In this document: in pieces, positions 91-31,207 of the stretch
Layout of the letters: every line of letters begins with the position of its first letter
Numbering within the stretch: position 1 is the first letter of the stretch
Assembly: GCA_963707985.1 (NCBI GenBank)
Contig: CAVPRW010000010.1
Location: 240,303-304,302, forward strand
DNA length: 64,000 nucleotides
Reading direction: 5' to 3'
DNA from: an uncultured Nitrospinota bacterium
Lineage (GTDB): Bacteria > Tectomicrobia > Entotheonellia > J063 > CAVPRW01
The notes under the pieces: model-generated
Seen by the model: the letters and a program-made list of their open reading frames with translations, nothing else
Database searches by the model: none
What the model was told of the DNA's origin: nothing
Program-made: the position numbers and the translations under genes

Positions 91-1236
91 CTACCGCTTC
101 TTGGCGCTCGGCCAATGTTCTACCGACGGCACGGGCTGTGCTCTAAGCTGCAGTCCCGTCTTGGCATTGATATGCTCAATCCACCCAGCCTGGAAGTCCA
201 CGATGTCGCCCTCCCTTGGGGGCACCATTGGAGAGTCGTAGTCAGCATAGGATCGTGTCTCAATGGTCTGCATGAATCCGAACTTCAATCCGACACGGAG
301 CCCCTGGTCAGCGACGACGAATTTCTGCCTAATACTGCCGTCTTCGTGTCCATACATTGGACCGTGGTGCAACTCGGGATCGATACTAGGTTTATTCTGC
401 TTTCGGAATGCGATAAGCCTATCCAGCTCCTCATCGGTCATATGATCAGGATGATAGTACAGGCACTGGTTCGCGCTGGCCGCCTGCAAAGCGTTGATGA
501 CCTGAACATCGTAGCCACTGGCCAGAACGACGCGCGACTGGGGGCTACCACACGTATAGGTTTGCGGATCATACATGACGATACAAACGCGGGGGGAGAC
601 TGGCATGATGAGTTGGATGCCCTTTACTAGGAGGCCCCCTGCCCCATAACAGTGCGATAGCCTCGGGTGATGCTCGACAAACTGGTTGGAGATCGCGACC
701 GGATGATCGGAGATCACAAACCCGACCTTTCTGTCGTGGAGCAGAAACTTCACCGGAAGGTCGGCAATGGTGCCTGCTGCGACTGCTGCTGACGCCAAAG
801 CGAAAAGCTGAGGGTCCTTCGGGCGGATCCGCACCGAGCGCAAGTCAATGCCGGCAGCTACTGCTCTTGGCTGCAAGAGCTCCTTGAGTACCGCTTCAGC
901 CATTCGCTCAATACCAGTGGCTGCCCTCAGCGTTCGCCTGTGCTGAAACAGAACATAGAGCCTGAGGTGAATTATCTCCACATCAGAGATGGATTGGAGC
1001 CGAGCGGCGCTCAGATCGCCGAGGGTATCCGCGAATTTTCCTTCGGCGTCGCTGAAGGCCTTCTCCATCACGAGGTCTTTACCATAGAAATAGTCTCGGC
1101 AGCACTGCTCTCGAATTCCGACATCGCGCCTCCTCTTACCCGTATCCAAGATCACCATACTCGTCCGCTTACCATCCCTGGAGAACTTACCCATCTGCAT
1201 TTGAGATACATAATGCTGTCGCTTGTTTTCGGCCAC
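91..1236 (-). CDS. DUF4238 family protein (N-terminal HYVSQ...F motif resembling the HYVPQFYL signature); GTG start with ACGGAG SD
   Basis: 381-aa ORF; N-terminus KRQHYVSQMQMGKFS matches my recollection of the DUF4238 signature; no other recognisable domain. Confidence 0.5.
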   Translation of the reverse strand: MAENKRQHYVSQMQMGKFSRDGKRTSMVILDTGKRRRDVGIREQCCRDYFYGKDLVMEKAFSDAEGKFADTLGDLSAARLQSISDVEIIHLRLYVLFQHRRTLRAATGIERMAEAVLKELLQPRAVAAGIDLRSVRIRPKDPQLFALASAAVAAGTIADLPVKFLLHDRKVGFVISDHPVAISNQFVEHHPRLSHCYGAGGLLVKGIQLIMPVSPRVCIVMYDPQTYTCGSPQSRVVLASGYDVQVINALQAASANQCLYYHPDHMTDEELDRLIAFRKQNKPSIDPELHHGPMYGHEDGSIRQKFVVADQGLRVGLKFGFMQTIETRSYADYDSPMVPPREGDIVDFQAGWIEHINAKTGLQLRAQPVPSVEHWPSAKKR

Positions 1237-1320
1237 TTTCTTGCTCCGTCACTGAAGTTTTGATCAGGTCTCGAGTTCTATATGCTTATGCTCCAGGATG
1301 CTCCAAATCCTTTCATACAG

Positions 1321-1390
1321 CCTAACCCGTCGGTGAGCAGACCCGCAAAAAGCTGTGCTTTTTGCGGGTCTGCTCGACCGACGGGTTAGG
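1321..1390. terminator. Long near-perfect inverted repeat (33/34-nt arms, 3-nt loop) overlapping the stop codon of the DUF4263 gene, 85 bp upstream of the DUF4238 start
   Basis: cctaacccgtcggtgagcagacccgcaaaaagc-tgt-gctttttgcgggtctgctcgaccgacgggttagg read directly; one extra base in the right arm. Confidence 0.6.
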
Positions 1391-2141
1391 CATCACACCG
1401 GCCAACAAGTGGAAGAACTTGATCCATAGCCAAAACCCTGAAGCCATCTAGATAGTGATGCCAGGTTGACCTATTTGCGAGCGCGTCGGCCCTGAGTTCG
1501 TCGGAGATTTTCAGATAGGAGGGGTCAACCCATGCGAAGATACTTTCGCTGACGAAGTACTTGGACACCAGTTCGAAGTGCTCATTCTTCCTGACGCCGA
1601 GATACAGCGGCGTCTTGGTGTGCAGTGATTCCGCAAGACTGTTATAGGAGACGATGTGGAAGTCATCATTCTCGCGCGAACGGATCAAGCCTGTGCGTAT
1701 TTCGTTGCCTTCAAATTCAGACCGACGGCCATGCACCAAGACGTATTTGACATGGCAGGGATTTCGCCGCAATGACTCGGGAACTCGTATGGGTGCGATG
1801 GTGCCATCTGTGAAACCCAAAGCGTTGGACGGGTTGTCAAACCACGCGCGCCATCTGGCAATCTGGTCTAGCCCTGCGTGGAAGTCTGGATGTAGGTCAT
1901 TGGAGCCGTCTTTGAAGTACCGTGACTGAGGCTTCTCGATTTCGACTAGGACGAGATGCCAATCTGCGGAACTCTTCGCCATGTAGAAGAAGTCCGGTGA
2001 ATAGTCTTTTGCAAGCGACAGCTTTCGGAACACCAAGTCGAAATGCACGCCGTGATTCTGTATGAATTCTCGCGGGATCAGGCTCGTGTTCTCTTCAAGG
2101 AAGTGCTGATACCGCTGTTCGGGATGCTCTCCATCCAACAA
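1386..2141 (-). CDS. DUF4263 (Shedu SduA-like) PD-(D/E)xK nuclease-domain protein; TTG start with AAGGGAG SD
   Basis: YQHFLEEN...PDFFY...LVLVEIEKP matches DUF4263 conserved N-terminal block and the D...E-x-K core; 251 aa. Confidence 0.5.
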   Translation of the reverse strand: MLDGEHPEQRYQHFLEENTSLIPREFIQNHGVHFDLVFRKLSLAKDYSPDFFYMAKSSADWHLVLVEIEKPQSRYFKDGSNDLHPDFHAGLDQIARWRAWFDNPSNALGFTDGTIAPIRVPESLRRNPCHVKYVLVHGRRSEFEGNEIRTGLIRSRENDDFHIVSYNSLAESLHTKTPLYLGVRKNEHFELVSKYFVSESIFAWVDPSYLKISDELRADALANRSTWHHYLDGFRVLAMDQVLPLVGRCDA

Positions 2142-2166
2142 CGCGAAGAACTCCCTTCTTAGGAGC

Positions 2167-3480
2167 CGTCTGGAAATAAATTTTACATTAATGCATTAGC
2201 TCCCCGTCTTGCTCTGGGACGCTTATGAGGAAGGATCGTGTAGTTCCACTCGCCGTGGAAGTCGGATCGCTCAAGGCGCATGGCCTCCATCTCGACAGCG
2301 CTCACCTTGAGGCCAATCGGATATTGCCCAGCATCGAGGGCCGCCTGGATGCGCAGCCCCGTGGAAGAGCGAGGACTGCCAATGAGGCTGACGATCACCT
2401 CGCGGCTCAGCAGGGGCTGTCCACGCCAGTTCGCGGTGATGTAGCAAAACATGCGATGTTCGATCTTGTTCCATGTGCTCGTGCCAGGCGGCCGATGGCT
2501 GACCGCCATACGCAGCCCCGTCTCATCGGCGAGCCGCTGCAGCTCGGCCTTCCATAGCCGCGCCCGGGCACTGTTGCTGCCGCCACCATCTGCCGTGATG
2601 AGCAGCTCCTTGGCCCGCGGATACATGGCCGAACCCATCTGGCGCCACCACGCCCGGATCGTCGCTACTGCGAACGCAGCGGTGTCATGGGCCACGCCCA
2701 CGCTGACCCACCCGAGGTTGGCGCCGACGTCGTAGACGCCGTCGGGGATGGCCTTGCCTCGCTCCCCATCGACGAAGTCATACACGCGGACCTCAGGAGG
2801 ATGCCCCGTGGGGTGCCACTCACGGCCAGCATTCTTGAAGTCTCCGAGGAGTTCCTTCTTCTTGGCATCGACAGAAATGACCGGCTGGCCGCGGCGCTGA
2901 AAGTCCTGCACCCGGACGTTGAGATGCTCGAATTGCGCGTGGCGGTCCGGGTGATGGCCCCCCTCGCGGGTCTTGCGCGCTCCCTGTAAGCTGTAGTCCG
3001 CCGCATGGAGCAACTCGCTCACGAGCTGGGGGCTGACCTGGTGCCCCTGCGTTTTGAGCTCGGCCGCGAGCTTGCGGACACTCTTGCACGTCCAGCGCAG
3101 CGGTGATGGCGGGTCGCCTCGGGTCGTGGGCTCGACCAAGGCTTCCAACGCGTGAAGCAGCGTTGGGTCGTGCCTGGTGCGCTTCTTGCGCCCGCCCCCA
3201 GGCCGTCGGACCCGCTCGTCACGCCCCCGAGGCGTCGCCACGGTGCCGGTGTGGATCTCCTCAATGCCAGCGTAGATCGTCGGGCGTGACAGTCCTGTCG
3301 CTCGCGCGGCGGCACTGATACCACCGCGCCCCAGCGCGAGCGCTTCGGTCGCGGCCCAGAGCCGTCGCGCGTGCTCGTTTAGCACCGGGCTCAGCGTCTT
3401 GAACTTCTCCGTCAATGCAGTGTATTCTCGCATGTGGCTTAGTCTAACCCTGGAAAACCATTTGTAAAGGTTATTTCCAG
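2167..3480 (-). mobile_element. ISAzo13-family insertion sequence with about 25-bp imperfect terminal inverted repeats (TCTGGAAATAAnnTTTACA...)
   Basis: Left end gtctggaaataaattttacattaatg (2167-2192) vs reverse complement of right end tgtctggaaataacctttacaaatgg (3455-3480); single transposase ORF inside. Confidence 0.7.
2183..3433 (-). CDS. ISAzo13 family DDE transposase
   Basis: 416 aa; HDTAAFAV...WW...YP.A.ELLITADGGGSN..R.RLWK.ELQ.LA..TG block typical of ISAzo13-like (Rhodopirellula-type DDE) transposases. Confidence 0.85.
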   Translation of the reverse strand: MREYTALTEKFKTLSPVLNEHARRLWAATEALALGRGGISAAARATGLSRPTIYAGIEEIHTGTVATPRGRDERVRRPGGGRKKRTRHDPTLLHALEALVEPTTRGDPPSPLRWTCKSVRKLAAELKTQGHQVSPQLVSELLHAADYSLQGARKTREGGHHPDRHAQFEHLNVRVQDFQRRGQPVISVDAKKKELLGDFKNAGREWHPTGHPPEVRVYDFVDGERGKAIPDGVYDVGANLGWVSVGVAHDTAAFAVATIRAWWRQMGSAMYPRAKELLITADGGGSNSARARLWKAELQRLADETGLRMAVSHRPPGTSTWNKIEHRMFCYITANWRGQPLLSREVIVSLIGSPRSSTGLRIQAALDAGQYPIGLKVSAVEMEAMRLERSDFHGEWNYTILPHKRPRARRGANALM

Positions 3481-3658
3481 ACAGCTACTTAGTGCCTCGA
3501 TGTCGTCGCCGCATAGTGCCACGGGTGTCTCCCGATGCCGAACGCGCAGGGTTCAGCGGCGGGGGCAGAACCACCACCGAGCTATGACTGGCCTACTAAG
3601 CCGCAAACCGCCGCTGTCCCCCCCGTCCGCTGGAACCCTTTGTTAGACCGCCGTGCGT

Positions 3659-6926: not shown

Positions 6927-7805
6927 TCAGGCCAATGGTGCGAGTGAACAGACGAACGTGGCCTGGGGAGCGGTGGAAGCAAAGTTGAAAGACGACATCA
7001 TGCGTCGCCATTCTTCGCCTAAGACGCTACTTGCGTCTGCAGGATAGATGAAAAAGTACTGGGGTTTCATGCTCAAGACCCATGCTGTGGAGGTGACGGG
7101 TGCGGAGGCCAAGCGGTTGTTGGTCGATCTGGCCTTCAGGAGACGGGTGTCAGCTGCGGCGCAAAACGCCCGCGGTGAGCCGCGCCCAATGGCCGGAGCA
7201 AGGCATGAGCGGAGGCTCTTGGGCGTCGGCTCCACTACGATGTTAGCCGGCTTTTGTCGGTTCAAGTTGAAAACCGTTTTGAGAAAACTCTTCACCGACT
7301 CTGTAGCGGCATGAGCTGCGGGGGTATCTGCGCCCACATGGGGGTTCAGTTCCACGCAAGCGTCCTTATAGGTAAAGGGTAGCTTCGTAGCCGCATTGAT
7401 CAACCTCCCCGTTGACTCCTCACGAATTGTGTAGTGACGAACGGTCTGGGCGCTTTCGGCGATCGTTGGTGTCGGACTGCCAAGAGGACTGTCAAACCCG
7501 TGCGGCGCATTCGGATACTCCGTGAGTTGGACGTCGTGCCCGGCACCACGCAGTCGCTCGACATATGCCTTGCAGGGTGCTACTGGATCGTAGTCGTCTG
7601 GACTGCCATGGAATAGGCGGATCGGTCGGTCTGCGACATCCATCTCGGACAGATATGTGGTCATGCAGTCCGGGTAGAAAGGAATGTAGGCGGTAAAATC
7701 GATGGCTGATGCGTTCCAGGTCTGGTGGAATCTCCTTAAGCTAGCGTAGAGAGCCGCTTGCCCACCTCGAGAGAATCCCATGAGGACGATCCGTGATGTA
7801 TCCAC
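6927..7805 (-). pseudogene. Dienelactone-hydrolase family fragment (N-terminally truncated; begins at the GFSRGG nucleophile elbow, long non-conserved C-terminal tail)
   Basis: MGFSRGGQAALYAS...FHGSPDDYDPV...APHGF present but the first ~100 residues of the fold are missing and no upstream continuation exists. Confidence 0.45.
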
Positions 7806-9712: not shown

Positions 9713-10675
9713 TCATGGATGCCGGACTGGCAATGGGGACGATGGCATGCAGGGTATAGAGCGGGCGTAGGCATGGAGGAAGGGCCCTTCCTGAGCCGCG
9801 AGTTGGCCAATGAAACGCTCTTCCGCCTGGACATTGAAATCCTTGGCGAGGGTTGCAGCGTTGGACATCTGGGTGCGGTAGAAGCCCCAGGCAAAGAACG
9901 CACCGATGCCAGCGGCGCCTTCCAGTCCGGCTCCGACGCCCCCGATGGTGCCCGCGATGAGCGCGCCATGGAGCCCCAGCCCGATCAAGCCGTCGAGTGT
10001 ATGGCCGGTATAGATTTGTCCGGTGCCGGGGAGTATCGTGGAGAGCATCCTGGCGACGGAGGGAGATCGATGCGGTAGTTCGGGAGGGATGACCAATGCG
10101 GCGGCCAAGCGTTCGCCGGATGCATGGTAAGGGCTGGCAGCGTCCACCTGTGCAAAGGCGTCGCGCGCCTCAGTCCATCGCCGTTGCCGCACGTAACTCC
10201 AGCCCATCAGGTAGGCGGCGCGCTGTGCGATGAGGCTTCCGGGGTACTGGCGCCTCAGCTCGTGGAACAGGCGAATGGCCTCCATTCGATCGCCCCCGCG
10301 GGCATGTGTCTCCGCCATCCACAGAGTGGCTTCTGCCCGCATCGCATCATCTGGCACCGTCTGCGCGATCCGGCGGAACACCTCAAATGCCTGCAGCCAA
10401 CGCTCCCCGCAGAAAAATGCTAGGCCAATCGCCAGTTGGGCCTCCAGAGCCAACGGATGTTCCGGTTGAAAAAAGAGGAAGCGCTGGAACTCACCGATGG
10501 CGCGATAATATTCCCCGGCGGCGAAGAGCGAGTGGGCAAACGCAAAGACCGGTGGCCGGGGAACAGTTGAGGTCGGGTGGGATAGAACGCGTGGTAAGGC
10601 GGGAACCAGCGCAGTGGGGAAGCTTAACCACAGCCCCCACAGACAGCAGAAGACGAGCCGCAACATATGCCCCAC
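9713..10675 (-). CDS. Secreted/membrane TPR-repeat protein with C-terminal Gly-zipper segment
   Basis: N-terminal hydrophobic signal, several TPR-like helical repeats (YYRAIGEFQRF..., EAIRLFHELRRQYP...), Gly-rich hydrophobic C-terminus. Confidence 0.55.
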   Translation of the reverse strand: MGHMLRLVFCCLWGLWLSFPTALVPALPRVLSHPTSTVPRPPVFAFAHSLFAAGEYYRAIGEFQRFLFFQPEHPLALEAQLAIGLAFFCGERWLQAFEVFRRIAQTVPDDAMRAEATLWMAETHARGGDRMEAIRLFHELRRQYPGSLIAQRAAYLMGWSYVRQRRWTEARDAFAQVDAASPYHASGERLAAALVIPPELPHRSPSVARMLSTILPGTGQIYTGHTLDGLIGLGLHGALIAGTIGGVGAGLEGAAGIGAFFAWGFYRTQMSNAATLAKDFNVQAEERFIGQLAAQEGPFLHAYARSIPCMPSSPLPVRHP

Positions 10676-10684
10676 GCCAGCTCC

Positions 10685-11122
10685 TCAGTCAGCGTCCTGG
10701 GCCCACCAGAAATCGTTGGCTTCAACCGGGTCGTAGGAACGCTGGATGCCATATTTGACGATGTGGGGGGCGCGCTGCTGCTCATCCCATTCGTGCAACA
10801 AGCGGTCGGTCGTCATCATGATGCCGATCAGCATACCGTGCTTAGCGACGGCTTGGCCGAGAAACCCTGAAGCCGTCGGATACATTACCGAGCGGGGTCC
10901 ATCGGCCCTGGTCAGCACCTGGTGCCAGGCCGTCAGCGCACCACGGACAGCCAGCCCCGGCACAGAGGTCTCGGGCTCGTTTGCACGCATAGCCTCTACC
11001 GTGGGCCGAGGCCATGGGCCGCGGAGCTTATCGGTGGCTGCTGCCAGGCCCACCAGGCCGCATGTTACCAGCACAGTGACCCAGATTGACACGACCCAAG
11101 CTGGCTTGGCGTTCTTCGGCAT
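10685..11122 (-). CDS. Hypothetical membrane-anchored protein
   Basis: N-terminal TM helix WVVSIWVTVLVTCGLVGLAAA; no recognisable domain; in-operon position. Confidence 0.4.
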   Translation of the reverse strand: MPKNAKPAWVVSIWVTVLVTCGLVGLAAATDKLRGPWPRPTVEAMRANEPETSVPGLAVRGALTAWHQVLTRADGPRSVMYPTASGFLGQAVAKHGMLIGIMMTTDRLLHEWDEQQRAPHIVKYGIQRSYDPVEANDFWWAQDAD

Positions 11123-11187
11123 GCGTCATCGACTCCGGCTCGCGCCTACCCGCCGCCACTCCGACGGGAAAGGGACTACCGCTTTTG

Positions 11188-13251
11188 CTACTTGAGCAAC
11201 TCCGCCAGAGCCACGGGAGTTGTGGTCGGCATGGAGCAGGCGAAATTGTGGCAGACGTAGGCGGTAGCCTTCCCCTCCACTTGCGTCATCTCGTCTACGG
11301 GCAAATGTGCGAAGGCGTCGGCAGGGCCTCCCGTGGGATCGATCGCCAGCAGGATCTTATTGGGCAGATACGATTCGTGCACCAGACGCAGCAACGACTG
11401 TGTATCGGCCTGATTGCCGCGACCGATGATGACGATTTCCTTGGGGGTCTCCAGGTAGAAGTCCAGGGCGCAGAGCATCTGGCCGAAACTGAACGGTTCG
11501 TCTTCCATCCTATCACGGAACAGACGCAAGGTCTGCTCTCCCTTCTGGAGCAACTCTTCTTCGCCGGTGTAATAATACAACCGCAAGAGGTTGAGAGTCG
11601 CGACCGAATTTCCACCGGGGACGGCATGATCGAAGGGGTCTTTGGGGCGATGGATGAGCGCTTCATGGTCAGGCCCGGTCAGGAAAAATCCGCCCTGCAC
11701 CTCATCCCAGAAATTGGCCAGCGTGGCGCGATTGAACTCCTCAGCCAGCGTCAAGAACCGTTGTTCACCGGTCGACTCGAAGGCGTCAAGCAGACAGGCA
11801 ACAAAGCAGGCATGATCGTCAAGGTAGCCAGCCAGCTTGGCCTGCCCATCCTTGAAGCTATGGAGCAGACGGCCATCGCGCACCAGATGCGACAGCAGGA
11901 ACTCGATCGACCGCACGGCATCCTGCTTCACCTGGTCATCTTCAAGCAGGTTGGCGGCATCGAAAAAGGCCGAGATCATCAACCCATTCCAGGCCACGAT
12001 CACCTTTTCATCCCGAAATGGCTTGATTCGTTCCTCGCGCGCGCTGAAGAGCCGCTGACGGGCCTCGTCGAGCAGGCGCTCGACGGCGGCTGCTTTCTCA
12101 CCGAATTCCTGCGCCACCCAATCGGCTGCTACAGCACGATGCAGAATGCTCTTGCCATGCTCGAAATTGCCCTGTTCATCCACGCCATAGGCTCGACAAA
12201 AGACCTCGCCGATCTCAGGCCCGACCACCGCCGCGACCTCTTCCGGGGTCCAGACGAAAAACTTCCCCTCCTCCCCCTCACTGTCGGCATCCTGAGTGGC
12301 GTAGAAGCCTCCCGCGGACTGGAGCATCTCGCGCTGGACGTACCCCACGGTTTCCTGCACCACGCGCCGGTAGAATGGATTCTTGGTGATACGGTATGCA
12401 TCAGCGTACAGGCGAATGAGCTGGGCATTGTCGTACAACATTTTCTCGAAATGTGGGACCAACCAGTGGGCATCGACTGAGTAGCGATGGAATCCGCCGC
12501 CGAGTTGATCGTAAATTCCCCCTTGTGCCATCTTCTCCAGGCCTAACAAGGCCATGCGCAGGTAGGGCTCGTTCCCTGTCGCCCGCCAATAGCGTAGGAA
12601 TACTGCCAGGAGCATGGGGTTGGGGAATTTGGGTTGCGTGCCGAAGCCACCATAGGTTTCATCGAAGGAATTGTTCAGTTTGCGCGCCGCGTTCTCGATG
12701 ACGGTCTTACCGAGGGGAAGGGCAGACGCACGGAACGTCGACAATCCGTCGAGTCCCTGCAACACCCGCTCCGTCGTCTGGCGGATCTCGGCTTTATGTT
12801 CACGATAGTATTGGGCCACCGCCTCGATGACCTTGGGGAACCCTGGACGGCCGAATCGATCATCGGGGGGATAATATGTTCCACCGTAAAAAGGCTCTCG
12901 GTCAGGTGTGAGGAACATCGTCAGCGGCCACCCGCCACCAACTCCAAACATCTGTACGACATACTGGTAGATCTGGTCCAGATCCGGGCGCTCCTCGCGG
13001 TCGACCTTGATATTCACAAAGTTCTGATTCATGAGCTCAGCGATGGGCGCGTTTTCAAACGATTCATGCTCCATGACATGGCACCAATGGCAGGCTGAAT
13101 AGCCGATGCTGAGCAAAATGGGTTTATCCTCTGCTTTGGCTTTCGCCAGGGCTTCTTCACCCCATCCATACCAATTCACCGGATTATGGGCATGTTGGAG
13201 GAGGTACGGGCTGGTCTCATGAATCAGGTGGTTGGTATAGCGATGGTCCAT
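11188..13251 (-). CDS. Thioredoxin-domain protein of the DUF255/YyaL (SPATA20-like) family
   Basis: [58 protein letters not shown]-terminal thioredoxin-like block followed by six-hairpin glycosidase-like domain. Confidence 0.85.
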
Positions 13252-13506
13252 TGGCTCGCTCACTTTCCGTCTGTACACGACCTTGGCGATGGGGGGAGAC
13301 GAGCGCAGTAGGAGCCTGCGCCTGTTGTCCTCATACTGTACAGTACCATACTGCCATGAGAACCTCAATCGTCTTTGGAAAATTAGTCATATATTTCAAA
13401 AATATACACGAATCAAAACCAATATGCAGGTGGGATCGGTGGTTGAGATGAAGAGGTGGCCGGAGGCGTGGCTTGGCCATATTTTCCAGACAGCCCGTGG
13501 CTGTGA

Positions 13507-14592
13507 CTATCGGCCTGCCCGAAATCGGTACCGCTCCTGCACATAACTTCCCAGTTCCTGACACCAGAGCGGCACATGGGACAGGGCCAACCCCAGTTGA
13601 AGGGGGAGTCTTGGAAATTCGTTCAAAGGTGCGCCCAGGGCCACTGTTGCGGCGATGGGCATATCCCAGCGTTCACGGGCTTCCCCAAGCATCTGCAGCG
13701 GATGACGCCAATGGCAGGCCATATAGTGTACGACTCTCCTGCGCTCACCGGCTCCGAGGCAGCGATCCCATTGCCGTAAGACGGCTGGGATGAGCCAGCG
13801 GGGTAAGTGGTTGGCGTGATCGGCAACCGGGGTGTTTTCGATATCGGCAGCCAGGAGCTGGTGCGCTAGCCCTAGTGTGCAGGCCACCCAACCGGCGTGG
13901 CGGCTATTCCCTCCCAGGCAACGGTCCCAATCGAAGTCCGGCGGCCGAGATTCCAGCGCCGCGGCGATATCACAGAGCCACAGCGGGCGCCAGGCATTGT
14001 GGCGCAGGAAATGGCGGATTAAGACGACCAGATGGTCCTCGGCGGCCAGGATACGGATATCGACGTCGTTGAGACGAGCGGTTTGTGAGCGTGCGTAGAG
14101 AACGTCGAGACTTTGGCCACACATCCACCTTAGGCCGCGATGCAGGTCCACGGGGCATTCGCCACCATTGCCCTCGTTGAGCACGGTCAGGGCCGCACCG
14201 TGTTGTTCGGGGCGCACGACGATATCAAGATCGCCAAACGGACGCAGGCCGGACTCCGGATAAAGCCGGGCCACGGCCCAGCCTTTGATCAAGAGCGGTT
14301 CCACCCCGGCGGCGCGCAGCGCGCCGAAAAGCTGTTGCAGCACCTGCTCACGTACGGTTGTGCGAATGGTGTGCAAACGATAGGCTTGCTGCAGGGTGCG
14401 GGCCGCGGCGGATGTCCGCAGACGGCTGTGTCGAACACGGTGCCAACCGAGCGCCCCTCCTCCCGATCGCAGCAGCAGCGGGGTAACCTGTTGTAACTCG
14501 CCCTCGGATGTAGCCAGGGGAGGAGGGTTATGACGCCAAATTCCCCTCAGCAGTGAGGCCAGGACACTACCGGGGGACGTTACTATACTCAT
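13507..14592 (-). CDS. Nucleotidyltransferase family protein (NTP_transf_5-like, the family that accompanies HPr-kinase homologues in lasso-peptide clusters)
   Basis: FGDLDIVVRP nucleotidyltransferase motif; 361 aa; overlaps upstream kinase gene by 26 nt. Confidence 0.6.
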   Translation of the reverse strand: MSIVTSPGSVLASLLRGIWRHNPPPLATSEGELQQVTPLLLRSGGGALGWHRVRHSRLRTSAAARTLQQAYRLHTIRTTVREQVLQQLFGALRAAGVEPLLIKGWAVARLYPESGLRPFGDLDIVVRPEQHGAALTVLNEGNGGECPVDLHRGLRWMCGQSLDVLYARSQTARLNDVDIRILAAEDHLVVLIRHFLRHNAWRPLWLCDIAAALESRPPDFDWDRCLGGNSRHAGWVACTLGLAHQLLAADIENTPVADHANHLPRWLIPAVLRQWDRCLGAGERRRVVHYMACHWRHPLQMLGEARERWDMPIAATVALGAPLNEFPRLPLQLGLALSHVPLWCQELGSYVQERYRFRAGR

Positions 14593-15418
14593 AGGACTTC
14601 TCCAGATATTTCAGGAGCCGTGGGGCGACTGCGCTGGCCTCGCCACGTCCACCCTTGAGGATGATGGCGTTGGCGGCGACCCGCTGCAGGATAACCAGAA
14701 CATCGGCGGGTTGGCGGCGCGCCGACACCGTATTCGCCAACAAGGCTAACACCCCGTGCCCAGGGGAGAGACGTCGCGGTCGCCAGCTGGCCCCAGCCTT
14801 GTAATGGCTAACCACTACAAGACCGATGGGCAGGGGCGTGGAGCCCGTACTGCCACTCAGCGTCTCTGCGGGGTGCCGAATCGCCCTCCCTCCGGGATCC
14901 GCACGCAGGGACAACGGCTTGAGATATGGATGTACTCGTCCCTGCTCATCCAACACGGCATATTCATCCGAATAATAGGTCGCACCGGCAGTTACCAAGG
15001 CTGCGACCAGTGTACTTTTGCCGCTGTGGCTCCGCCCTGGGATGAGGACGGCCTTCCCTCGCCAGCCGACCACACCGGCGTGTACGAACCGCCGACGGGG
15101 TGCGGCTTCAGCCACATGCAGATGGACATGCGCTTCAAGGGCGTCGAAAACCTCCTCAAGATCGAGTGATCGCGCCACACGCAGCGCATTCGCATACAGT
15201 AAGTGGAAACGACGCACTGCCGCCCTTGCTCCAGCTCCCCCTACGACCAACGAATAGAGGATATCCACCTGGGGGGAGGAGGCGGGTTTCCATGCCGGCG
15301 GCAGATAGATTCCAACTCGTTTCAGCACATCGGTCTCGCTCACTCGGATCCCGACGCGCACCCCATAGGCGGTAAAGGCCCGTCCAGCCGCCCAGCCCAG
15401 GCGGTCGATTTTCTCCAT
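14567..15418 (-). CDS. HPr kinase/phosphorylase-like P-loop kinase (HprK-related kinase)
   Basis: GRSHSGKSTL Walker A in the position and context of the HprK C-terminal domain (GxSGxGKS). Confidence 0.65.
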   Translation of the reverse strand: MEKIDRLGWAAGRAFTAYGVRVGIRVSETDVLKRVGIYLPPAWKPASSPQVDILYSLVVGGAGARAAVRRFHLLYANALRVARSLDLEEVFDALEAHVHLHVAEAAPRRRFVHAGVVGWRGKAVLIPGRSHSGKSTLVAALVTAGATYYSDEYAVLDEQGRVHPYLKPLSLRADPGGRAIRHPAETLSGSTGSTPLPIGLVVVSHYKAGASWRPRRLSPGHGVLALLANTVSARRQPADVLVILQRVAANAIILKGGRGEASAVAPRLLKYLEKSYEYSNVPR

Positions 15419-15921
15419 TCACGTCGACCCAGACTTGAGATAGGGGAGAATCGTTTCGGCCACTGCTCGTCACTCCCATGCGAATGGCATCATGTCCTGA
15501 ACCGCGTGCCTGACGACTCCCCATGGTGCAGAGGCGCCGACACACCCATCGCTGATACACGCACCACTGGTACAATAGGGTCAACTGGAGTCACTGATCT
15601 CGATCCTAACACGGAAGATAAAATTGATCAATAAAATTCATAAATATATGGAGAATAAGCCAATAACTGTACTCATAGTTGCTGACGCAGTTGATTCGAT
15701 ATTTGCATTAGCTTCCATAAGACTTATAGGGTTTGAAGAGCTGCACCCAGCACTGTGCCCTGGGCAGCAGGCGATGCGCAAATCTATGCAGCGATCGGGT
15801 GAATGCGTCTAGGCTGGGAAAGAATCGAACGAGGCAGGAAACGAGCCGTGGACTCAGCCACATCTTCCTTGACCCGGAATAGGAGACCACAAGCGTTTAG
15901 ACGGCACCGAGCGCAACGCGC

Positions 15922-16254
15922 TTACGGCAGTTTTCGGATAGCGACAATGCGAGATTTTTTCTCCTCACTGACCCGAAAATGGATACGATCTCCGGCTTTG
16001 AGGCCATTGAGCAGGGCTGGATCCGACACGCTGAATGGCATTTCCATTGGTCCCATGAAATACCCAGGCGCTCGAATGGGCTCGTGATCCAGCAGAATCT
16101 GCCCTTGATCTGCCATAATGCCGACCACCGTTCCTTCTGATTCGTACGGACCCCACTCGCCAGCCTGGAGCCCTGGGATGGCACAAACCGTCCAGAACGT
16201 GATAGCCAGCATGATTGTAGTCAATCGAACCACTCGGCATTGGCACAGGCGCAT
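15922..16254 (-). CDS. cusF: CusF-like periplasmic copper-binding protein
   Basis: Signal peptide then ILLDHEPI...FMGPMEMPFSV...LKAGDRIHF matches the CusF H-x-M-x-M metal site and beta-barrel motif. Confidence 0.55.
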   Translation of the reverse strand: MRLCQCRVVRLTTIMLAITFWTVCAIPGLQAGEWGPYESEGTVVGIMADQGQILLDHEPIRAPGYFMGPMEMPFSVSDPALLNGLKAGDRIHFRVSEEKKSRIVAIRKLP

Positions 16255-16834
16255 GGCGGGGGTCGCGCTCTGACCGGTATTCGGCGAGACAGAATATTTC
16301 AATCTTGTGTGGACTGATTGAGATGTTGTGCGACGTTGTGTCATAACTGAGTTCCCTCTCGACCCTGGATTGCCAGATATCAGACGACGGCACGTCTGCT
16401 GCTCAGGTGCGAGCCAATCCGGAGGGCGTTGCACTCATCCTCTCGAGGAGGTAACCCATCGGATTGGCGGCCTTCGGTGGGGAGAAGGCCAGCCTCCGCG
16501 ACGTTAGTGGGATTATAACATGCTCCCCAAGCCGGGTAACATGATAGTAACCGCTTAAGCCTAGGCTCGTTGACACCGGGCGACAGCACGCTAGAATATC
16601 ATGCTGACATGGCAACGGGATCGATTCAGGCAACGAATGGCACAGTCCCGGCGGATAGCCTCCATAGAATCCGAGGGTTTATGGCTTGAAGTACGGCCGG
16701 ATCACCTCACATGCCACGCGTTCCATCCTGGATGGCTACAAGTTATCACGCAAGTATTTCCCCGGTTAGATCTACATTGTGCCCCGTCGGGTCGGGTGCC
16801 TCATGTCCCGATGCTCGGGTGCAGAGGGGGTGAT

Positions 16835-17200
16835 GTGCGCTTTCGCGTCCATCTTCGTGCCCCACCGCCGATTGTGATTCCAATAAACTATGCGCATCAG
16901 CTCGCCTCCGTCGTCTACCACCTTCTCGGCCGCTCTTCTTCAGCATATAGGGCGTTTCTGCATAGTCAGGGCTATGGCACAGGCGATCGTCGCTTCAAAC
17001 TGTTCACCTTCTCCCCTCTCTTTGGTCAGCCACGCCAGGTGGTGGCCGGGCATTTACGCTTCGAGACTACCGCAGTGACATGGTCCATCACCTCCCCAGT
17101 GGAAGCCTTCATCCGACATGTGGTCCAGGGCATTCTGAGCCTCGATCAGATCGAGATAGCCGGCGTTACTTTCATAGAAAAGAGGAGACTTATGGCATGC
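16835..17200 (+). pseudogene. cas6: Cas6 endoribonuclease N-terminal fragment (C-terminal half incl. Gly-rich loop missing; reading frame runs into the HEPN gene)
   Basis: VRFRVHLR...PINYAHQLASVVYHLLG...AFLHSQGYG...FKLFTFSPLFGQPR...HLRF aligns to Pyrococcus-type Cas6 (RFLIRL..PYNHQYYLQGLIY...KLHD..KPFVFSLLFGNPR); GTG start with GAGGGGG SD. Confidence 0.55.
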
Positions 17201-17655
17201 CTGGCCGCTACGAAGATTGGTTACGGCAGGCGCGACGAGATATCAGCCACGCGCAAAACGCCTTGGAGGATGGCGATTACGATTGGGCCTGCTTTGCAGC
17301 CCAGCAAGCGGCCGAGAAAGCCGTTAAAGCCCTCTTCCGATTCCTCGCTGCAGACGCTTGGGGTCATTCCGTGAGCTTGTTACTCGGCAGGCTCCCCGAG
17401 ACATACAGACCTCTCGAAGCCATGATCGATGGCGCCAAGGAACTAGATAAGCATTACATCCCTTCGCGTTATCCCTATGGCTTTGACGAGGGTGCCCCAC
17501 TTGATTACTACACCAAAGATGAAGCCACACGGAGCATAGGCCATGCGCGAGTCATCATCACCTTCTGTGAAGGTCACATTTACCAACCGAGAACAAATCC
17601 TCACAGCCCTGAAGAATCTGATCCAGGAGTGGGCCCAACAACACCCGGAGCTTGA
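17197..17655 (+). CDS. HEPN-domain protein (HepT-like toxin of HEPN/MNT pair)
   Basis: DYDWACFAAQQAAEKAVKA...LDKHYIPSRYP typical HEPN; AGAGGAG SD 9 nt upstream of ATG. Confidence 0.7.
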   Translation: MPGRYEDWLRQARRDISHAQNALEDGDYDWACFAAQQAAEKAVKALFRFLAADAWGHSVSLLLGRLPETYRPLEAMIDGAKELDKHYIPSRYPYGFDEGAPLDYYTKDEATRSIGHARVIITFCEGHIYQPRTNPHSPEESDPGVGPTTPGA

Positions 17656-17920
17656 GCAGGTCATCCTGTTTGGCTCATTTGCGCGTGGCGATTATTTCCC
17701 CGGAAGTGATGTGGACGTGCTTCTCATCCTTGAGAACTCAGACCAACCGCTTCTATACCGTAGCCGAAAATTTCTTCCAACCCATTTTCCGGTTGACATC
17801 GATGTATTTCCTTACACTAGAGATGAAATCGAGCGCTTCATGAATGATCCTCAGAGCCTCGTGGTGCAGGCGCTGTCCGAGGGCAAACAGATGTACCCTT
17901 TAACTGGTTGCGAGTTTTAG
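17543..17920 (+). CDS. Minimal nucleotidyltransferase (MntA-like antitoxin)
   Basis: ILFGSFARGD....SDVDVLL = GS-x9-DxD Pol-beta superfamily motif; overlaps HEPN gene. Confidence 0.65.
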   Translation: MRESSSPSVKVTFTNREQILTALKNLIQEWAQQHPELEQVILFGSFARGDYFPGSDVDVLLILENSDQPLLYRSRKFLPTHFPVDIDVFPYTRDEIERFMNDPQSLVVQALSEGKQMYPLTGCEF

Positions 17921-18112
17921 ACACCGCAGAACGCTCGCAGGTAGATCAACACATACGCTAACAACTTCATCCCCGTATAGTCAAAATATTCGAACTCGCC
18001 TTCCCCCTGGAGGTTAGGCCTTTACCACCGTCTGTGCTTCAGCTTGTCTTCTGCTCCACTTTCACCCATACTCAGCATCAATTATGGATAGCAAAAGCTG
18101 AGAGGTGCGGCG

Positions 18113-19066
18113 ATGGACTGGAAACACCTGCTCGCATACATCACGGCGACTGTCGATCAGGAACTGCTGGTGTGCAACGAATATCTGGTCACGGAGAATC
18201 GCATCCTCCGCACCCAAATCAAGGGGCGCCTCCGGTTGAGTGACGGCGAACGTCAGACCTTGGCGGAGATTGGCCAGAAGCTAGGGAAGCAAGCCTTGGA
18301 GGAAGTGGCCACGATCGTCAAACCCGAGACCGTCCTTGGCTGGCACCGGAAACTGGTCGCCCGGAAGTTTGACGGTTCCCAACAGCGCAAGGCTCCCGGC
18401 CGTCCCACGATCGACCAGGAGGTGGAGGCCCTGGTGGCGCGTATGGCCAAGGAGAACCGCTCCTGGGGTTATGACCGGATCGTCGGCGCACTGGCCAACC
18501 TGGGCTATACGATCAGTGATCAAACCGTGGGCAATATCCTCAAGCGCCACGGTATCCCACCGGCACCAGAGCGTAAAACCACGACAACCTGGAAGGAGTT
18601 TATCCTCACGCACATGGATGTGCTCGTCGCCACTGACTTTTTCACCGCTGAGGTCTGGACAACGGCAGGGTTAGTGACATACTACGTGCTCTTTTTCATC
18701 CACCTCGCCAGTCGGCAAGTCCATCTGGCCGGCGTGACGCCCCATCCTGATGAGCGATGGATGGTGCAGAGCGGCCGTAACGTCACCATGACTGACTGGG
18801 GCTTCCTGTCTCCCGGGCAGTACCTCATCCATGACCGGGATGGGAAATATTGCCCCGTGTTTCAGCACATTATTGATGAGGCTGGCGTGAAGCGCGTTCC
18901 ATTACCGCCGCGGTCGCCGAATCTGAATGCCTACGCGGAGCGGTGGGTGCGCTCAGTGAAGGAGGAGTGTCTGTCGCGACTGATCCTGTTTGGGGAAGCG
19001 TCGCTCTGGTATGCGCTTCAAGAGTATGTGGAGCACTACCGTCACGAGCGGAATCATCAGGGTTAG
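18113..19066 (+). CDS. DDE (rve integrase-core) transposase of the IS3/IS481 superfamily, possibly 3'-truncated
   Basis: Leucine-zipper N-terminus, HTH ([19 protein letters not shown]), LIHDRDGKY and ...[10 protein letters not shown] ending abruptly within the conserved Y-x-ERPHQ motif. Confidence 0.7.
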
Positions 19067-19541
19067 GACAATGTGCTGCTCTTTCCTATCTCAAGAGGAG
19101 ACGGAAGGCGTACAGGCCCGGTTCACTGTCGAGAACGGCTCGGCGGACTCCTGAAATACTACGAGTGTGAGGCCGCATGAGTTTTTTGACCAAACGACCA
19201 GCAAAGTCTTCCAATCCATGCGTCTGTCCCCCTCCGTTTGCTCCGCCCTCCATGGGCGTCGAGTATACGTAATGGGGTGGACAGGAGGCGAGCCGAAGCG
19301 TGAGCCATGGCAGGGCCGTAAACGCTGCCGTCAAGCCGGTTTCGAGTTTTTTGACCATACGCGATTATTCCGATGAGACGAAGCGATTTGCGATCGCGCC
19401 GAGGTCACGATTCTTTGTCTCGAGCTCCCTCCGTCGCTCAGAATACTCTGACGTTAGGCGTTCTGACTCGTCGAACGTTCCGTCTTCGTTGTATCGGACA
19501 GCTGATAGGAATCGAGTATCTCCCTCGAATGCCTGCGCGGC

Positions 19542-20288
19542 CTACTCTGTGAGGGTTTGGAAGGTTCGCTCAGCCGTTTCCAGAGGTGCCTTGAGTTGGG
19601 TCCGTACCTCACGATGAACCGCCCCGAGGCCTTCGCTGTACTGCCTGAGGAGCGGCATAAGGGCAATGAGGCCATTCCCATTGGCACGCTGTTTGAGTTC
19701 CTCGAGTATTGGAGGTTTGAACTTCTTATCCTGAGCAAGTTCCCTTACACCAATGGCAGGGACGACGCTGAATCTCGAGCGGGCTGGCTGGAATCGCTCC
19801 TCATGGACGATAGGGAACGAAATAGCATTAACCGGAAGTCCTCGATGCTGAGCATGATTTCGCAACGCCTCCATTGCCCTGTACCCAAAGCGGTCATCGT
19901 ACTGCGCATTCATAACCTTTCTTATGCGCGCCACCACACGGCCACCATCTTGAAGGGCCTCTGAAATGTCGTGCTTTACTTGGTCCACGTATAGCCGCGC
20001 CGTCGCAAGGTAGTTGGTAAGTCTGCGATTCGTGCTACGCCGTGCGTGATTTAGGAGCTCGTCAATCCGACCAGGAAAGAGTGAGTACTCAAGCGCCATG
20101 TCGAGGAGATGACGTTCGAGATCCGCGTGATTCTCCAGTGCGATGTCGAACTTTTCCTCGACACCCAACCCAACGCTGAGCGTGACCCGCGCCCGTTGTG
20201 CGGCAGCGAACTCCTCCGCCGAGATTGGCACGTCTTTGTCGAAACCGATGTATGCGCAGGTAACGCCGTACCTTACTGCATCAGTCAT
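19542..20288 (-). CDS. Hypothetical protein with HEPN-like R-N-x3-H motif (ALRNHAQH)
   Basis: 249 aa, start MTDAV with GGAG SD; no known domain recognised beyond the motif. Confidence 0.4.
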   Translation of the reverse strand: MTDAVRYGVTCAYIGFDKDVPISAEEFAAAQRARVTLSVGLGVEEKFDIALENHADLERHLLDMALEYSLFPGRIDELLNHARRSTNRRLTNYLATARLYVDQVKHDISEALQDGGRVVARIRKVMNAQYDDRFGYRAMEALRNHAQHRGLPVNAISFPIVHEERFQPARSRFSVVPAIGVRELAQDKKFKPPILEELKQRANGNGLIALMPLLRQYSEGLGAVHREVRTQLKAPLETAERTFQTLTE

Positions 20289-20429
20289 GTGTCGCTCCTG
20301 AGCGCTCCCGTCGCCCAACTATTGAGTATCTGGCCATGTTTGCGTCAACGCCTCCTTGAACTAGTGCGAAGTCAAGCCGGCCCCACCCGTGCGTGATCAG
20401 TACAGCACATAATGGACCAAATGGCTGAG

Positions 20430-20910
20430 TCACTTCCGCGCCAGTGGCGCTCTGATGGGATCGCCGAACACGTCGATGATGAAGCGGTCCACGCCTTTGA
20501 AAAAGGCTTCCGCTAATCCTGCGATTGAGACGAACACCTGATCTGGAGCCGCTTGTGGGTTGTAGATGACTTCTGGGTCCGATTGATCGACATACCCGAT
20601 CTCCCGGCATTTGCCTTCGCGGCTCAGCCGTGACATGACGCTATAGTTGTGGAGCATGCCGCACCGTGCCCCATAGAGATCAAGCCCTGTGAGCTGTTCC
20701 TGACAGGGGAAATGCAGATATTGCTCAGCCCAGCGGATGAAGGCAGCACGGGTGACATCCTGCTGGCCCTCCGGCAGACTGAGGAAGGCCATGGCATCGA
20801 TCCACGCGTAAATCAGGATGACGGCAGAGCGATAACATTGCTGCTCAAGTAGCACCTCTATGCCCTGCTTGATCCCGACATGAATGACGTTTGAGATCGA
20901 TGCCTGCGGA
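20430..20910 (-). CDS. Hypothetical protein (160 aa)
   Basis: Start MSEVPQ with AGGAG SD; contains ARCGMLHN (R-x4-H); otherwise unassignable. Confidence 0.35.
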
Positions 20911-21087
20911 ACCTCGCTCATGAGCCATACACTCCTGGGAATGCTCCTCGCTCCACTGTGGTCGGCTGCACTCCACACCGAAGTCCGGTTGTGGTAACGC
21001 GGTTTGGAAGGGCTGTGCTGGACCACGTTCGCGCCCATTCGTGACGCCTGCCGCGAGACGGGGCGCTGACCCACCTCTGTGTAACGT

Positions 21088-21516
21088 TTATGGGGCCTCG
21101 CTGGCTGCCCGGCGAGGATTAGGGACCGCGTCGATGATCTGGTCAAACGTGCAGGCCCGCCCTTGAAACCCGTATATTTCGTTCACAAAGTGGTGGTAGG
21201 CAGGGTCCCTGGCCTCCAGACTCTTGAAGGCTTCGGCGACGGTGTGGAGCACGAGATAAGCGTCCTGCCGCCAAATCCGTAAGGGAAGCAGATTGAGCTT
21301 GAGGTGGGTGGACTGTCTGGTCTGAGGATCGAGCACCTGGTGAAATTTCAGATCGCCGTAGCCTGCCTGGAGAGCCGGTGGGGACACAAACTGCAGCGTC
21401 TCGAGCGTCTCCTGAACAATCTGGCCTTCCCAGAGATGGCTATGAGCAAGGACATCACGGATGACAAAGACCTCTCTGATCGCCTGGGTGAGTGGAGACT
21501 CCGGGGTCACCTCCAA
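21088..21516 (-). CDS. Hypothetical protein with HEPN-like R-D-x-x-A-H motif (IRDVLAHSH); TTG start
   Basis: 142 aa; motif resembles the Abi_2/HEPN R-[ND]-x-x-A-H signature. Confidence 0.35.
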   Translation of the reverse strand: MEVTPESPLTQAIREVFVIRDVLAHSHLWEGQIVQETLETLQFVSPPALQAGYGDLKFHQVLDPQTRQSTHLKLNLLPLRIWRQDAYLVLHTVAEAFKSLEARDPAYHHFVNEIYGFQGRACTFDQIIDAVPNPRRAASEAP

Positions 21517-21869
21517 GAAATACCCCAGCGCAGACTTCCGGCCCTGTCGCGTTCATGGTAACGGACCCAGGCAATCCCTGACTCGAACACCAGCGCGGCC
21601 AGGACGATGATCGCAGCCGAATACCCGTTCTCGTTCCGGCTGGTTTGTACGTCATTTGGAGCTTTGGCGGGCTCAGCCATCAAGGTTTCGACAACCCTCA
21701 CCAAGGGTTGGATCAAGGCAGGGCCAATCGGTGAAATATAGCCGAACGGCGTCTCGACCATACGATTCGTCTCCTCCTCCAGGCTTTGCTGATCAATCAC
21801 CGGCCACGGGCGGCGCAGGGGTAGGGGCACGGGAGCCCCGCTCGACGGCCTCATGGCAGGGTCGGACAC
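21507..21869 (-). CDS. Hypothetical protein with one hydrophobic (TM-like) segment; may be the frameshifted N-terminal part of the downstream gene
   Basis: 120 aa; NENGYSAAIIVLAALVFESGIAWV segment; 10-nt overlap with next ORF in a different frame. Confidence 0.3.
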   Translation of the reverse strand: MSDPAMRPSSGAPVPLPLRRPWPVIDQQSLEEETNRMVETPFGYISPIGPALIQPLVRVVETLMAEPAKAPNDVQTSRNENGYSAAIIVLAALVFESGIAWVRYHERDRAGSLRWGISWR

Positions 21870-22045
21870 CCCGCTCCTCCGCCTATAGGCGCACCTCCAC
21901 CCCAGCGCGCACCGGCATCTCGAAACACCAGCGGAGATGTCAGGGTCGCCAGCGCGTTCGGCGTTCTCGCCGGGCCGGTTCCTGATTGACGTAGATGCGA
22001 AGCTTTTCCGTGGGCGGCACGGATCAGTCGATCAGCTGAGTTGCC

Positions 22046-23261
22046 TCACTCGCACAAACACCACACGTGGAAGATATCAATAGGCGTCGCTTGGCCCTTG
22101 CGATCGGGCCACTGAAAGGTCCGCTCATGACGGCTCAGAAAAACAGCTTCGGCGGCCGGTGTTGAGCAGGCCCCTTTCATGGTTGTCCGTGCCGGTAGCT
22201 GCTGGGTCTGGAGAGTGGACATGCGCGGAGCTTCGGACATCGCAGGCAGCAAAGACTGTTCGATGGTGCGGCCGTTGCGGGCGTAAGCGAGCATCATGGC
22301 CTCCTGCATGGCCCACGCGTAGTCGCCGCGTACGAAGCGGATGAGGCCATCGTCACAGTATTTGCTGCCTGCAGGGTGCGCAGCGTCCACTGGCTTGGCT
22401 TCGATGAACAGGCCCTCGTGTTCGGAGAGCACCGAGCGTGGCTCGGTCTCGTCGTTTCGGAGTTTGAAAAAGAGGTCGGGGGCTTTGTTGAGGCTCTTGC
22501 CGTCGTAGTTGGCCCACTGGGCTTGACGGCTGACGAATTCGAAGTTGCGCTTGTCGAAACCCGGCACCTCGCCGCTCTGGCGGAGGTTGTTCTCAATCGT
22601 GCTGCGGAGTGCGGCGGTGACTCGGTCTTCGTGAGCGGCGGCGAGGTTGAATTGCTGTTCGCGCAGCAGCTCGAATGCGCGGAGCACCACGCGGCGGATG
22701 AGGAGCAGGACCGGAAGGCCAAGGCGCGGATGAGGGAGGTGATAACGCTCCGGCTGGAACGCCGAGCGTGAAGAAGCCCGCTGTGTCCGACGTGCTCATG
22801 CGTGCTCCGGCGAGACCACACTCGCCCAGTCGTTCGCGGATGATGTGTTGTGCGCAGAGCCGAGCACGCGTGACAGTCCACCACCGGCGCTGATTGAGCA
22901 GGCCGAGCAGCAGGCCGCGCTTGCGCGGCGCGTGCACAATGATGCGGCTGCAGCCGCGCTGGTTGGCCGCTTCCATCGCTTTTCGCATCAGGCTGGGATT
23001 GACCGACACCGAGTCCGCCTCGCGCGAGACGGCCAGGAAGAACCACGGTTCCCGCCATGTGTCGGGCTGAAACTCCGCCTCGCGCACCGCGACGTGTTCG
23101 CCGCAGACATCGAAATACGGTTCCAAGTGCTTCGCGCAGCGTTTGCACGAAATCGGCGCGTGTGTCGCGAGTCGTGCGGTCGAGCGCGGCCTTGCCGGCT
23201 TTGCGATACGAGGCGGCGGCGAAGAGCGTGTCCTCGGCGACCTGCACCGCATCCGCATCAA
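22046..23261 (-). pseudogene. PD-(D/E)xK nuclease-like gene, split across two frames (frameshift near 22.6-22.7 kb)
   Basis: ...KAPDLFFKLRNDETEPRSVLSEHEGLFIEAKP = PD...(D/E)xK core in frame ending 22690; protein-like N-terminal part in frame ending 23261. Confidence 0.4.
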
Positions 23262-31105: not shown

Positions 31106-31207
31106 TTGCGGACCAGTGCTAGTGTATGTTTGAAACCTGCAGCAAAGCCCGACACGGATATCTTTCCACCGCGAACATGGTGATGGCAGAAGAGGAGTGC
31201 AAGCCTC

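Follow-up and report, generated by a model that had tools for sequence, protein, structure and literature searches.

An HprK-like kinase and nucleotidyltransferase pair as a putative PqqD-less variant of a widespread cassette family

A 64-kb stretch of contig CAVPRW010000010.1 from an uncultured Nitrospinota bacterium, in the following called the window, carries two overlapping minus-strand genes for an HprK-like P-loop kinase and a nucleotidyltransferase of the NTP_transf_5 family. On sequence grounds, we take this locus to be a reduced, PqqD-less variant of a large uncharacterized family of cassettes, built from an HprK-like kinase, a PqqD-domain protein and an NTP_transf_5 enzyme. We see about an even chance that the pair is the enzymatic core of a widespread peptide-tailoring cassette, acting most likely on a substrate that is encoded in trans. 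A first-pass annotation of the window had suggested that the pair could phosphorylate or nucleotidylate a peptide or protein other than a lasso peptide. This stands as the best-supported reading, with the amendment that the two genes appear to be the remnant of a three-gene cassette, from which the gene for the likely substrate or recruiter was deleted. HprK-like/NTP_transf_5 pairs have so far been characterized solely for a few lasso peptides, in whose tailoring they have an accessory part and which to our knowledge provide the only biochemical precedent; the family to which the window pair belongs, known to us by its sequences, is far larger and shows no connection to lasso peptides.

The enzyme pair and its cassette family

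The first gene of the pair (14567-15418, minus strand) encodes a kinase-like protein of 283 residues, with the P-loop GRSHSGKST at residues 128-136. Its top-scoring named family is HprK_rel_A of NCBIfam (E = 8e-17), with 61.2 bits against a cutoff of 200; HprK_rel_B gives only a faint NCBIfam match, and TIGR00679, the model for true HPr kinases, reaches 15.9 bits (cutoff 240) over residues 99-153 only. No Pfam family matches the protein, the HPr-kinase models and the HPr-kinase C-terminal model included. Sequence searches against PDB with the profiles of both proteins of the pair gave no meaningful matches, and fold searches alone were informative. An AlphaFold (AF2) model of the kinase, built on 15 homologues (predicted local distance difference test, pLDDT, 86; predicted template modelling score, pTM, 0.83), matches in Foldseek the catalytic domains of HprK/P (1kkl, 1jb1, 2qmh; template modelling scores of 0.5-0.63 on the target) and ATP-dependent phosphoenolpyruvate carboxykinases (PEPCK). 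HprK/P and ATP-PEPCK share one common P-loop fold.

The alignment of the family shows His113, G128/S130/G133/K134, D151/E152, D157, H163/P164 and R172 as invariant. The possibility raised with the first-pass annotation that the kinase might lack catalytic residues is answered by the retention of H113, the P-loop K134 and D151/E152. We take residues 113, 128-135 and 151-152 to correspond to residues 140, 155-162 and 178-179 of L. casei HprK/P, and presumably the spacing His-15-GxSxxGKS-16-DD is equal in the two proteins; both correspondences serve as a lead and not as a test.

The second gene (13507-14592, minus strand) encodes a nucleotidyltransferase of 361 residues, and its start overlaps the kinase stop by 26 nucleotides, in agreement with the overlap reported earlier. 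The protein matches NTP_transf_5 (PF14907) with 91.9 bits, above the Pfam gathering threshold of 31.2, and the pol-β-type catalytic acidic residues G120-D121-x-D123 and D149 are invariant in its alignment. Its AF2 model (pLDDT 85) yielded weak Foldseek matches to the pol-β-fold structure 5uvd, ANT(2''), LnuA, TM1012 and FKRP. Both gene identities given in the annotation are therefore borne out, that of the kinase by its HprK fold and that of the nucleotidyltransferase by its Pfam score. For the term HPr-kinase homologue, the HprK/PEPCK fold and the P-loop hold, whereas no Pfam HPr-kinase model matches and HprK_rel_A, although the best of the HprK-related models, remains under its cutoff; the kinase is best placed as a distant sister family to the HPr kinases.

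A word-indexed search with the kinase returned more than 6,800 matches, and an exhaustive search gave about 1,540 cluster representatives at 50% identity (E ≤ 1e-30). Hidden Markov models (HMMs) built from seed loci were run on 80 species-representative genome loci (about 82 in a separate count of non-redundant loci) from Acidobacteriota, Gemmatimonadota, Methylomirabilis, Abditibacteria and Chloroflexota. The usual order is kinase, PqqD-domain protein and NTP_transf_5 enzyme, often with large Peptidase_C25 proteins alongside; all three genes occur together in most of the approximately 80 kinase loci scanned, and C25 genes in about 25. In the neighborhood comparison, as suggested with the annotation, orthologues of the kinase and the nucleotidyltransferase co-occur in most of these loci. 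Orthologues of the window pair in the family, full length and adjacent, are 52-87% identical to the kinase and 46-83% to the nucleotidyltransferase.

Family members come from phyla of soil and sediment (Acidobacteriota, Gemmatimonadota, Methylomirabilota, Chloroflexota and Entotheonellia). The cassette sits between rpoBC and fusA in Gemmatimonadota, inside arginine-biosynthesis genes in one locus (L008; L numbers are our locus labels) and, in many Acidobacteriota, next to genes for WecA-like GT4, Wzy_C, TPR/CBM and FecR-like proteins. Because it occurs in such unrelated gene contexts, it looks self-contained. We found no paper on the cassette, on the kinase family or on the domain architecture of the PqqD partners.

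These partners, which are present in relatives only, are about 160 residues long and combine an N-terminal PqqD domain, of the type known as RiPP recognition element (RRE; RiPP, a peptide that is ribosomally synthesized and then modified post-translationally), with an internal segment resembling a twin-arginine translocation (Tat) signal and a C-terminal Cys-rich peptide. Outside the window, they are encoded at L002:9414-9902, L005:10940-11413, L009:10926-11405 and about 60 other loci. In the signal-like segment, RR is invariant and is accompanied by a hydrophobic stretch and the motif AxA (as in SRRELVRRLGLAAAVALPVVTSIVAPTAAQA), and two of the partners weakly match a model of Tat targets. The C-terminal peptide comprises 25-45 residues with 6-10 conserved cysteines, commonly in the knottin-like spacing C-x6-C-x5-CC-x3-C-x4-C. 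At least 1,743 homologues of these PqqD-tail proteins exist, annotated merely as PqqD family proteins. The most striking component of the system, an RRE joined to an export signal and a knottin-like peptide, is thus a feature of the relatives and absent from the window.

The large C25 proteins near the cassette (L002:2401-9343, L005:12556-16752, L009:1-9884) resemble PorU, the C-terminal sortase of the type IX secretion system (T9SS), with 252 bits, a likeness limited by a cutoff of 420 and, for the window, by the absence of a C25 gene. A T9SS is not what the phyla bearing these PorU-like proteins are known for.

A metagenome scan seeded with PqqD-tail proteins gave 13 loci whose flanks measure 3 kb or more in both directions. 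Six of them (L105, L111, L114, L150, L151, L164) have PqqD-tail, nucleotidyltransferase and C25 genes and no kinase, four contain a kinase and one has C25 as the sole partner; in the two others (L127, L135), the PqqD-tail gene is an orphan with no partner within 10 kb. The PqqD protein is accompanied most constantly by the nucleotidyltransferase rather than by the kinase. Since orphan PqqD-tail genes and kinase-less loci exist, the components of the cassette appear to combine freely and can be unlinked.

Loss of the PqqD gene and selection on the pair

The search for partner genes in the source genome covered the 64-kb window of a 373,986-bp contig. In tblastn searches with PqqD and C25 queries, neither was found in these 64 kb; a PqqD match at 45672-45929 (E = 0.013) proved spurious, as it lies inside an open reading frame (ORF) of a FAD-binding/succinate-dehydrogenase-like protein. 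A Pfam survey, which covered about 45 of the 69 window ORFs of at least 90 residues, detected no Asn-synthetase-like cyclase, transglutaminase-like B2 protein, PqqD/B1 protein, C25 peptidase, ABC exporter or radical-SAM gene. Together, the survey and the tblastn searches uphold, for the window, the earlier statement that lasso maturases and an exporter are missing. With an HMM of the signal-plus-Cys-tail region, neither the window nor any of the loci yielded a stand-alone precursor ORF.

Among named relatives, a Candidatus Entotheonellia metagenome-assembled genome is nearest; its kinase is 72% identical. In the Entotheonellia relative (L002), the gene order is GlgB ... CusF, C25, C25, PqqD-tail, kinase, nucleotidyltransferase, DUF255. 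In contrast, all members of the clade with a 283-residue kinase, in which the window is accompanied by L001, L090, L091 and the P0007 contig (kinase identity 70-89%), have CusF followed directly by kinase, nucleotidyltransferase and DUF255, without PqqD. In the window, the gene for the CusF-like periplasmic copper-binding protein (15922-16215, minus strand), assigned by Pfam and by the gene order of the relatives, marks the upstream edge of the deletion.

The 500-nt spacer between CusF and the kinase contains a non-coding relic of 66 nt (15523-15588, minus strand), recognized in a collinear alignment with L002 as the 3' end of the deleted gene for the PqqD/Tat-signal/Cys-rich-tail protein. Its translation, ..PYCTSGACISDGCVGASAP.., aligns with the last codons of the PqqD-tail gene of L002, ..LPCCVGCACISGMCMGACAP followed by the stop codon; the window stretch lacks a start codon and has a stop codon upstream of it. 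The local alignment score was reached by 2 of 2000 shuffles, and the signal is weaker in L001 and L091. Gene order and relic point to a deletion of the C25-C25-PqqD block in the ancestor of the window clade.

Immediately upstream of the kinase ATG, comparison with L001 and L002 shows a conserved leader of 104 nt (15419-15522, minus strand). A block of 189 nt that reaches from 15569 into the coding sequence of the kinase shares 91% identity with L001; for 81 nt across the kinase start, made up of the final 43 nt of the leader and the initial 38 nt of the gene, identity with L002 amounts to 84%. An RNA element in this leader was considered and rejected: the predicted fold is no stabler than that of shuffled sequences (z = −0.2), an alifold of four sequences was weak and Rfam gave no match. 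Further upstream, about 185 nt from the kinase ATG and in an AT-rich patch, lies the promoter-like sequence TTGATC-17 nt-TAGGAT (15603-15631, minus strand), which was read by eye in the sequences and falls below the threshold of our scan. Hexamers and spacing are identical in L091 (70% kinase identity), suggesting a candidate promoter that may have been formed or retained at the deletion junction.

Both window ORFs of the pair have their full length, and all invariant residues are present in them. For the window and L001, the ratio of nonsynonymous to synonymous substitution rates (dN/dS) amounts to 0.22 (kinase) and 0.29 (nucleotidyltransferase), compared with 0.11-0.18 and 0.17-0.32, respectively, for PqqD-containing pairs at similar dS, and 0.06-0.08 and 0.08-0.15 for pairs within a PqqD-less Blastocatellia clade. 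Considered as a pair, the window genes appear to lie within the range of PqqD-containing lineages. In a neighbor-joining tree of the kinases, lineages with PqqD surround at least three distinct ones without it, namely the window clade, the Blastocatellia clade of 20 genomes and L022, which argues for at least three independent losses of the cis-encoded PqqD.

Because the ORFs are full length, the invariant residues are kept, dN/dS is low and other PqqD-less lineages exist, the pair is held by selection without a PqqD protein in cis. Given this maintenance and the orphan PqqD-tail genes elsewhere, partners that can be encoded in trans are the simplest reading. The window would thus be a natural experiment, in which an enzyme pair outlived its cis-encoded partner under purifying selection, and it constrains the system to either trans-encoded substrates or a wider set of clients.

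Proposed function and rival explanations

By analogy with characterized systems, we infer that the HprK-fold protein would phosphorylate a hydroxyl on a peptide or protein substrate, using ATP, and that the pol-β-fold NTP_transf_5 enzyme would next add a nucleotidyl or glycosyl-type group. For the family at large, the probable client would be the Cys-rich peptide of the PqqD fusion; its own RRE domain would recruit it, and export and release at the AxA site would follow. The substrate or recruiter would, in most relatives, be encoded between or beside the genes of the two enzymes; in the window lineage, where the C25-C25-PqqD block was deleted and the enzymes were kept, the substrate would most likely be encoded elsewhere in the genome. 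A more specific proposal, which we regard as possible but doubtful, is that the cassettes represent an undescribed RiPP-like class, in which an RRE/PqqD domain is fused to the precursor upstream of a twin-arginine-type signal and a knottin-like core, the C25 proteins serve as processing or attachment enzymes, and the enzymes of the window clade work in trans or have gained a second, non-RiPP client. If the PqqD-tail peptides are modified and exported, they would be ribosomal natural products or surface peptides of a new type.

Several observations weigh against a peptide-tailoring function. The window contains no substrate gene, either as a PqqD-tail ORF or as a stand-alone ORF for a signal and Cys-rich tail, and, a weaker point, no PqqD-tail homologue among the best 120 of 1,743 could be traced to the source contig. 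The PqqD tails have no conserved C-terminal Ser, their C-terminal residues being varied, and for this reason lasso chemistry is not simply transferable to them. As many PqqD-nucleotidyltransferase-C25 loci lack the kinase, the two enzymes need not act in sequence. Finally, the fold matches of the nucleotidyltransferase are weak, with a best E-value of 4e-3.

The family is related to three known systems and a member of none of them. In paeninodin-type lasso clusters, an HPr-kinase homologue phosphorylates the C-terminal Ser of the precursor, and in pseudomycoidin (PsmK/PsmN), an enzyme of the nucleotidyltransferase family adds one or two hexoses onto that phosphate (PMC8498205). The lasso pair (PadeK or PsmK, with PsmN) resembles the window pair in joining an HprK-fold P-loop kinase to a nucleotidyltransferase, and a PqqD/RRE-type domain is found in the relatives of the window pair. 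It differs in that A, B1, B2, C or D genes are seen neither in the window nor in related loci, that the putative substrates of the relatives are Cys-rich peptides behind a Tat-like signal instead of precursors with a conserved C-terminal Ser, and that many relatives have the nucleotidyltransferase without the kinase. We therefore consider it extremely unlikely that the pair belongs to an ordinary lasso cluster with its A, B and C genes outside the 64 kb, even though the characterized pairs of this kind are known only from lasso clusters: lasso genes turned up neither in the Pfam survey and tblastn searches of the window nor in the Pfam-annotated related loci, the HprK_rel_A score is weak, the Pfam model of the HPr-kinase C-terminal domain does not match, and the conserved partner is a fusion of PqqD, signal and Cys-rich peptide, not a lasso precursor. 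Among recurrent neighbor clusters, of which only a part is Pfam-annotated, no lasso-cyclase-like family was recognized.

The HPr-rel-A system, a computationally defined combination of HprK-related kinase A (TIGR04352) with a PqqD family peptide chaperone (TIGR04353) and, as we assume, a nucleotidyltransferase, provides the top-scoring named family for the kinase, and its logic of an HprK-like protein with a PqqD protein recurs in the relatives. However, both scores are under their cutoffs (kinase 61 vs 200 bits; PqqD, in one relative, 18 vs 35 bits), the PqqD proteins of the relatives carry a Tat-like signal and a Cys-rich tail, and the window retains a relic of the PqqD gene only. SynChlorMet, with HprK-like ScmC, PqqD-like ScmD and the radical-SAM proteins ScmE/F, is linked to the family by weak matches of kinase homologues to ScmC (PF27840) and by ScmD, the best, though weak, match of the relatives' PqqD domains; here, the scores are well under the cutoffs and the window locus has no radical-SAM/SPASM genes. 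HprK/P and ATP-PEPCK have the same P-loop fold as the window kinase, which differs from HprK/P in lacking its N-terminal domain, in an identity of 13-20% and in the absence of an HPr or phosphotransferase-system context.

Outside peptide chemistry, the pair could modify an envelope glycan, an exopolysaccharide or a lipid-linked intermediate, with the PqqD-tail proteins as occasional accessories. We judge this unlikely, although several observations favor it: in Acidobacteriota, the pair lies directly downstream of genes for WecA-like GT4, Wzy_C, TPR/CBM and a FecR-like secreted protein, the 20-genome PqqD-less Blastocatellia clade retains exactly that adjacency under strong purifying selection, and the fold of the nucleotidyltransferase resembles the small-molecule and glycan transferases ANT, LnuA and FKRP. 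Yet much of the Acidobacterial adjacency is synteny common to one clade, the cassette is also found in settings free of glycan genes (flanked by rpoBC and fusA, or within arginine genes), and no exopolysaccharide genes lie near the window pair. The commonest partner, moreover, is PqqD/RRE, a peptide-binding domain. It is quite improbable, too, that the pair is a leftover without function, decaying since its cassette lost the substrate gene. The deletion of the PqqD and C25 genes down to a relic, the neighboring island of transposases and broken defence genes, and dN/dS values at the upper end of the family range would fit decay, but the ORFs are full length with all invariant catalytic residues, their dN/dS is far below 1 and inside the range of PqqD-containing lineages, and the PqqD-less layout persists over a clade in which kinase identity has fallen to 70%.

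The first-pass annotation had placed the pair at the head of an operon with a DUF255 protein, a membrane-anchored protein and a secreted TPR protein. All five minus-strand ORFs of 9713-15418 are indeed found, and their order is conserved in L001 and L090, where the genes for the membrane and TPR proteins come after DUF255; the adjacency of nucleotidyltransferase and DUF255 extends to L091 and to the Entotheonellia loci L002 and L004. That the five co-stranded genes form one functional operon, with DUF255 or the secreted TPR protein as partner or target, is nevertheless improbable. The DUF255/Thioredox_DsbH protein (11188-13251, minus strand; Pfam 252 bits) has 687 residues when read from the ATG at 13251, a start chosen by homology within a TTG-initiated ORF of 11188-13368, and this leaves a gap of 255 nt to the nucleotidyltransferase, so that a single operon is not established, while co-transcription is possible. 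DUF255 stands beside the pair solely in the window clade and its Entotheonellia sister L002/L004, and in none of the other approximately 80 non-redundant kinase loci. It also evolves like a housekeeping gene, with identities of 89-95% in the clade (kinase, 72-87%) and a dN/dS between the window and L001 of 0.07, compared with 0.13-0.20 for other neighboring genes. Because the link to DUF255 is specific to the lineage and DUF255 evolves far more slowly, a five-gene functional operon is unsupported, and DUF255, the membrane protein and the TPR protein are probably a case of lineage-specific synteny and not parts of the peptide-tailoring system.

Other genes and features of the window

According to Pfam and NCBIfam, the membrane protein (10685-11122, minus strand) has 145 residues; a transmembrane segment lies at its N-terminus, and its YidD-like domain is a weak match without the customary cysteines. 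The TPR protein (9713-10675, minus strand) is YbgF-like and has 320 residues; its N-terminus resembles a signal, and its C-terminal region is hydrophobic. PADLOC gave no defence match for the five proteins or for nearby proteins of unknown function, and an Rfam scan of 9-17 kb of the window found nothing. In a scan for promoters and terminators, sites were fewer than, or no more than, in shuffled sequences, and none lay at gene junctions.

CusF and GlgB, which are neighbors in the relatives, are separated in the window by an island of about 10.5 kb (16595-27100) of mobile and defence debris. It contains a Cas6 fragment that a HEPN ORF overlaps and near which no CRISPR array was found, an rve-type transposase, overlapping frameshifted ORFs similar to Eco57I/N6_Mtase (22.0-26.0 kb) and an IS6/IS240 transposase. 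At the position of this island, the close relative L001 carries a complete type I cas operon. At the start of the window (94-2195, minus strand), a gene for a DUF4238 protein adjoins one for a protein with a Shedu SduA_C domain, probably a Shedu-type defence gene, and these are followed by an ISAZ013-family transposase (2186-3484).

A dienelactone-hydrolase/esterase-like ORF (6927-7805, minus strand) matches only the C-terminal half of the models and has a long unmatched tail; it is probably truncated or frameshifted. The region 51771-54104 stands out by a GC content of 0.68, compared with about 0.58 elsewhere, and harbors ORFs of 352 and 235 residues without a Pfam match. A gene for an encapsulin shell protein (Linocin_M18, 31184-32399) follows a small ORF at the position where relatives have EncFtn. 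Both are embedded in an alpha-glucan cluster of GlgB, GlgE and TreS-Mak genes (27.2-41.0 kb), an arrangement that is the same in two relatives.

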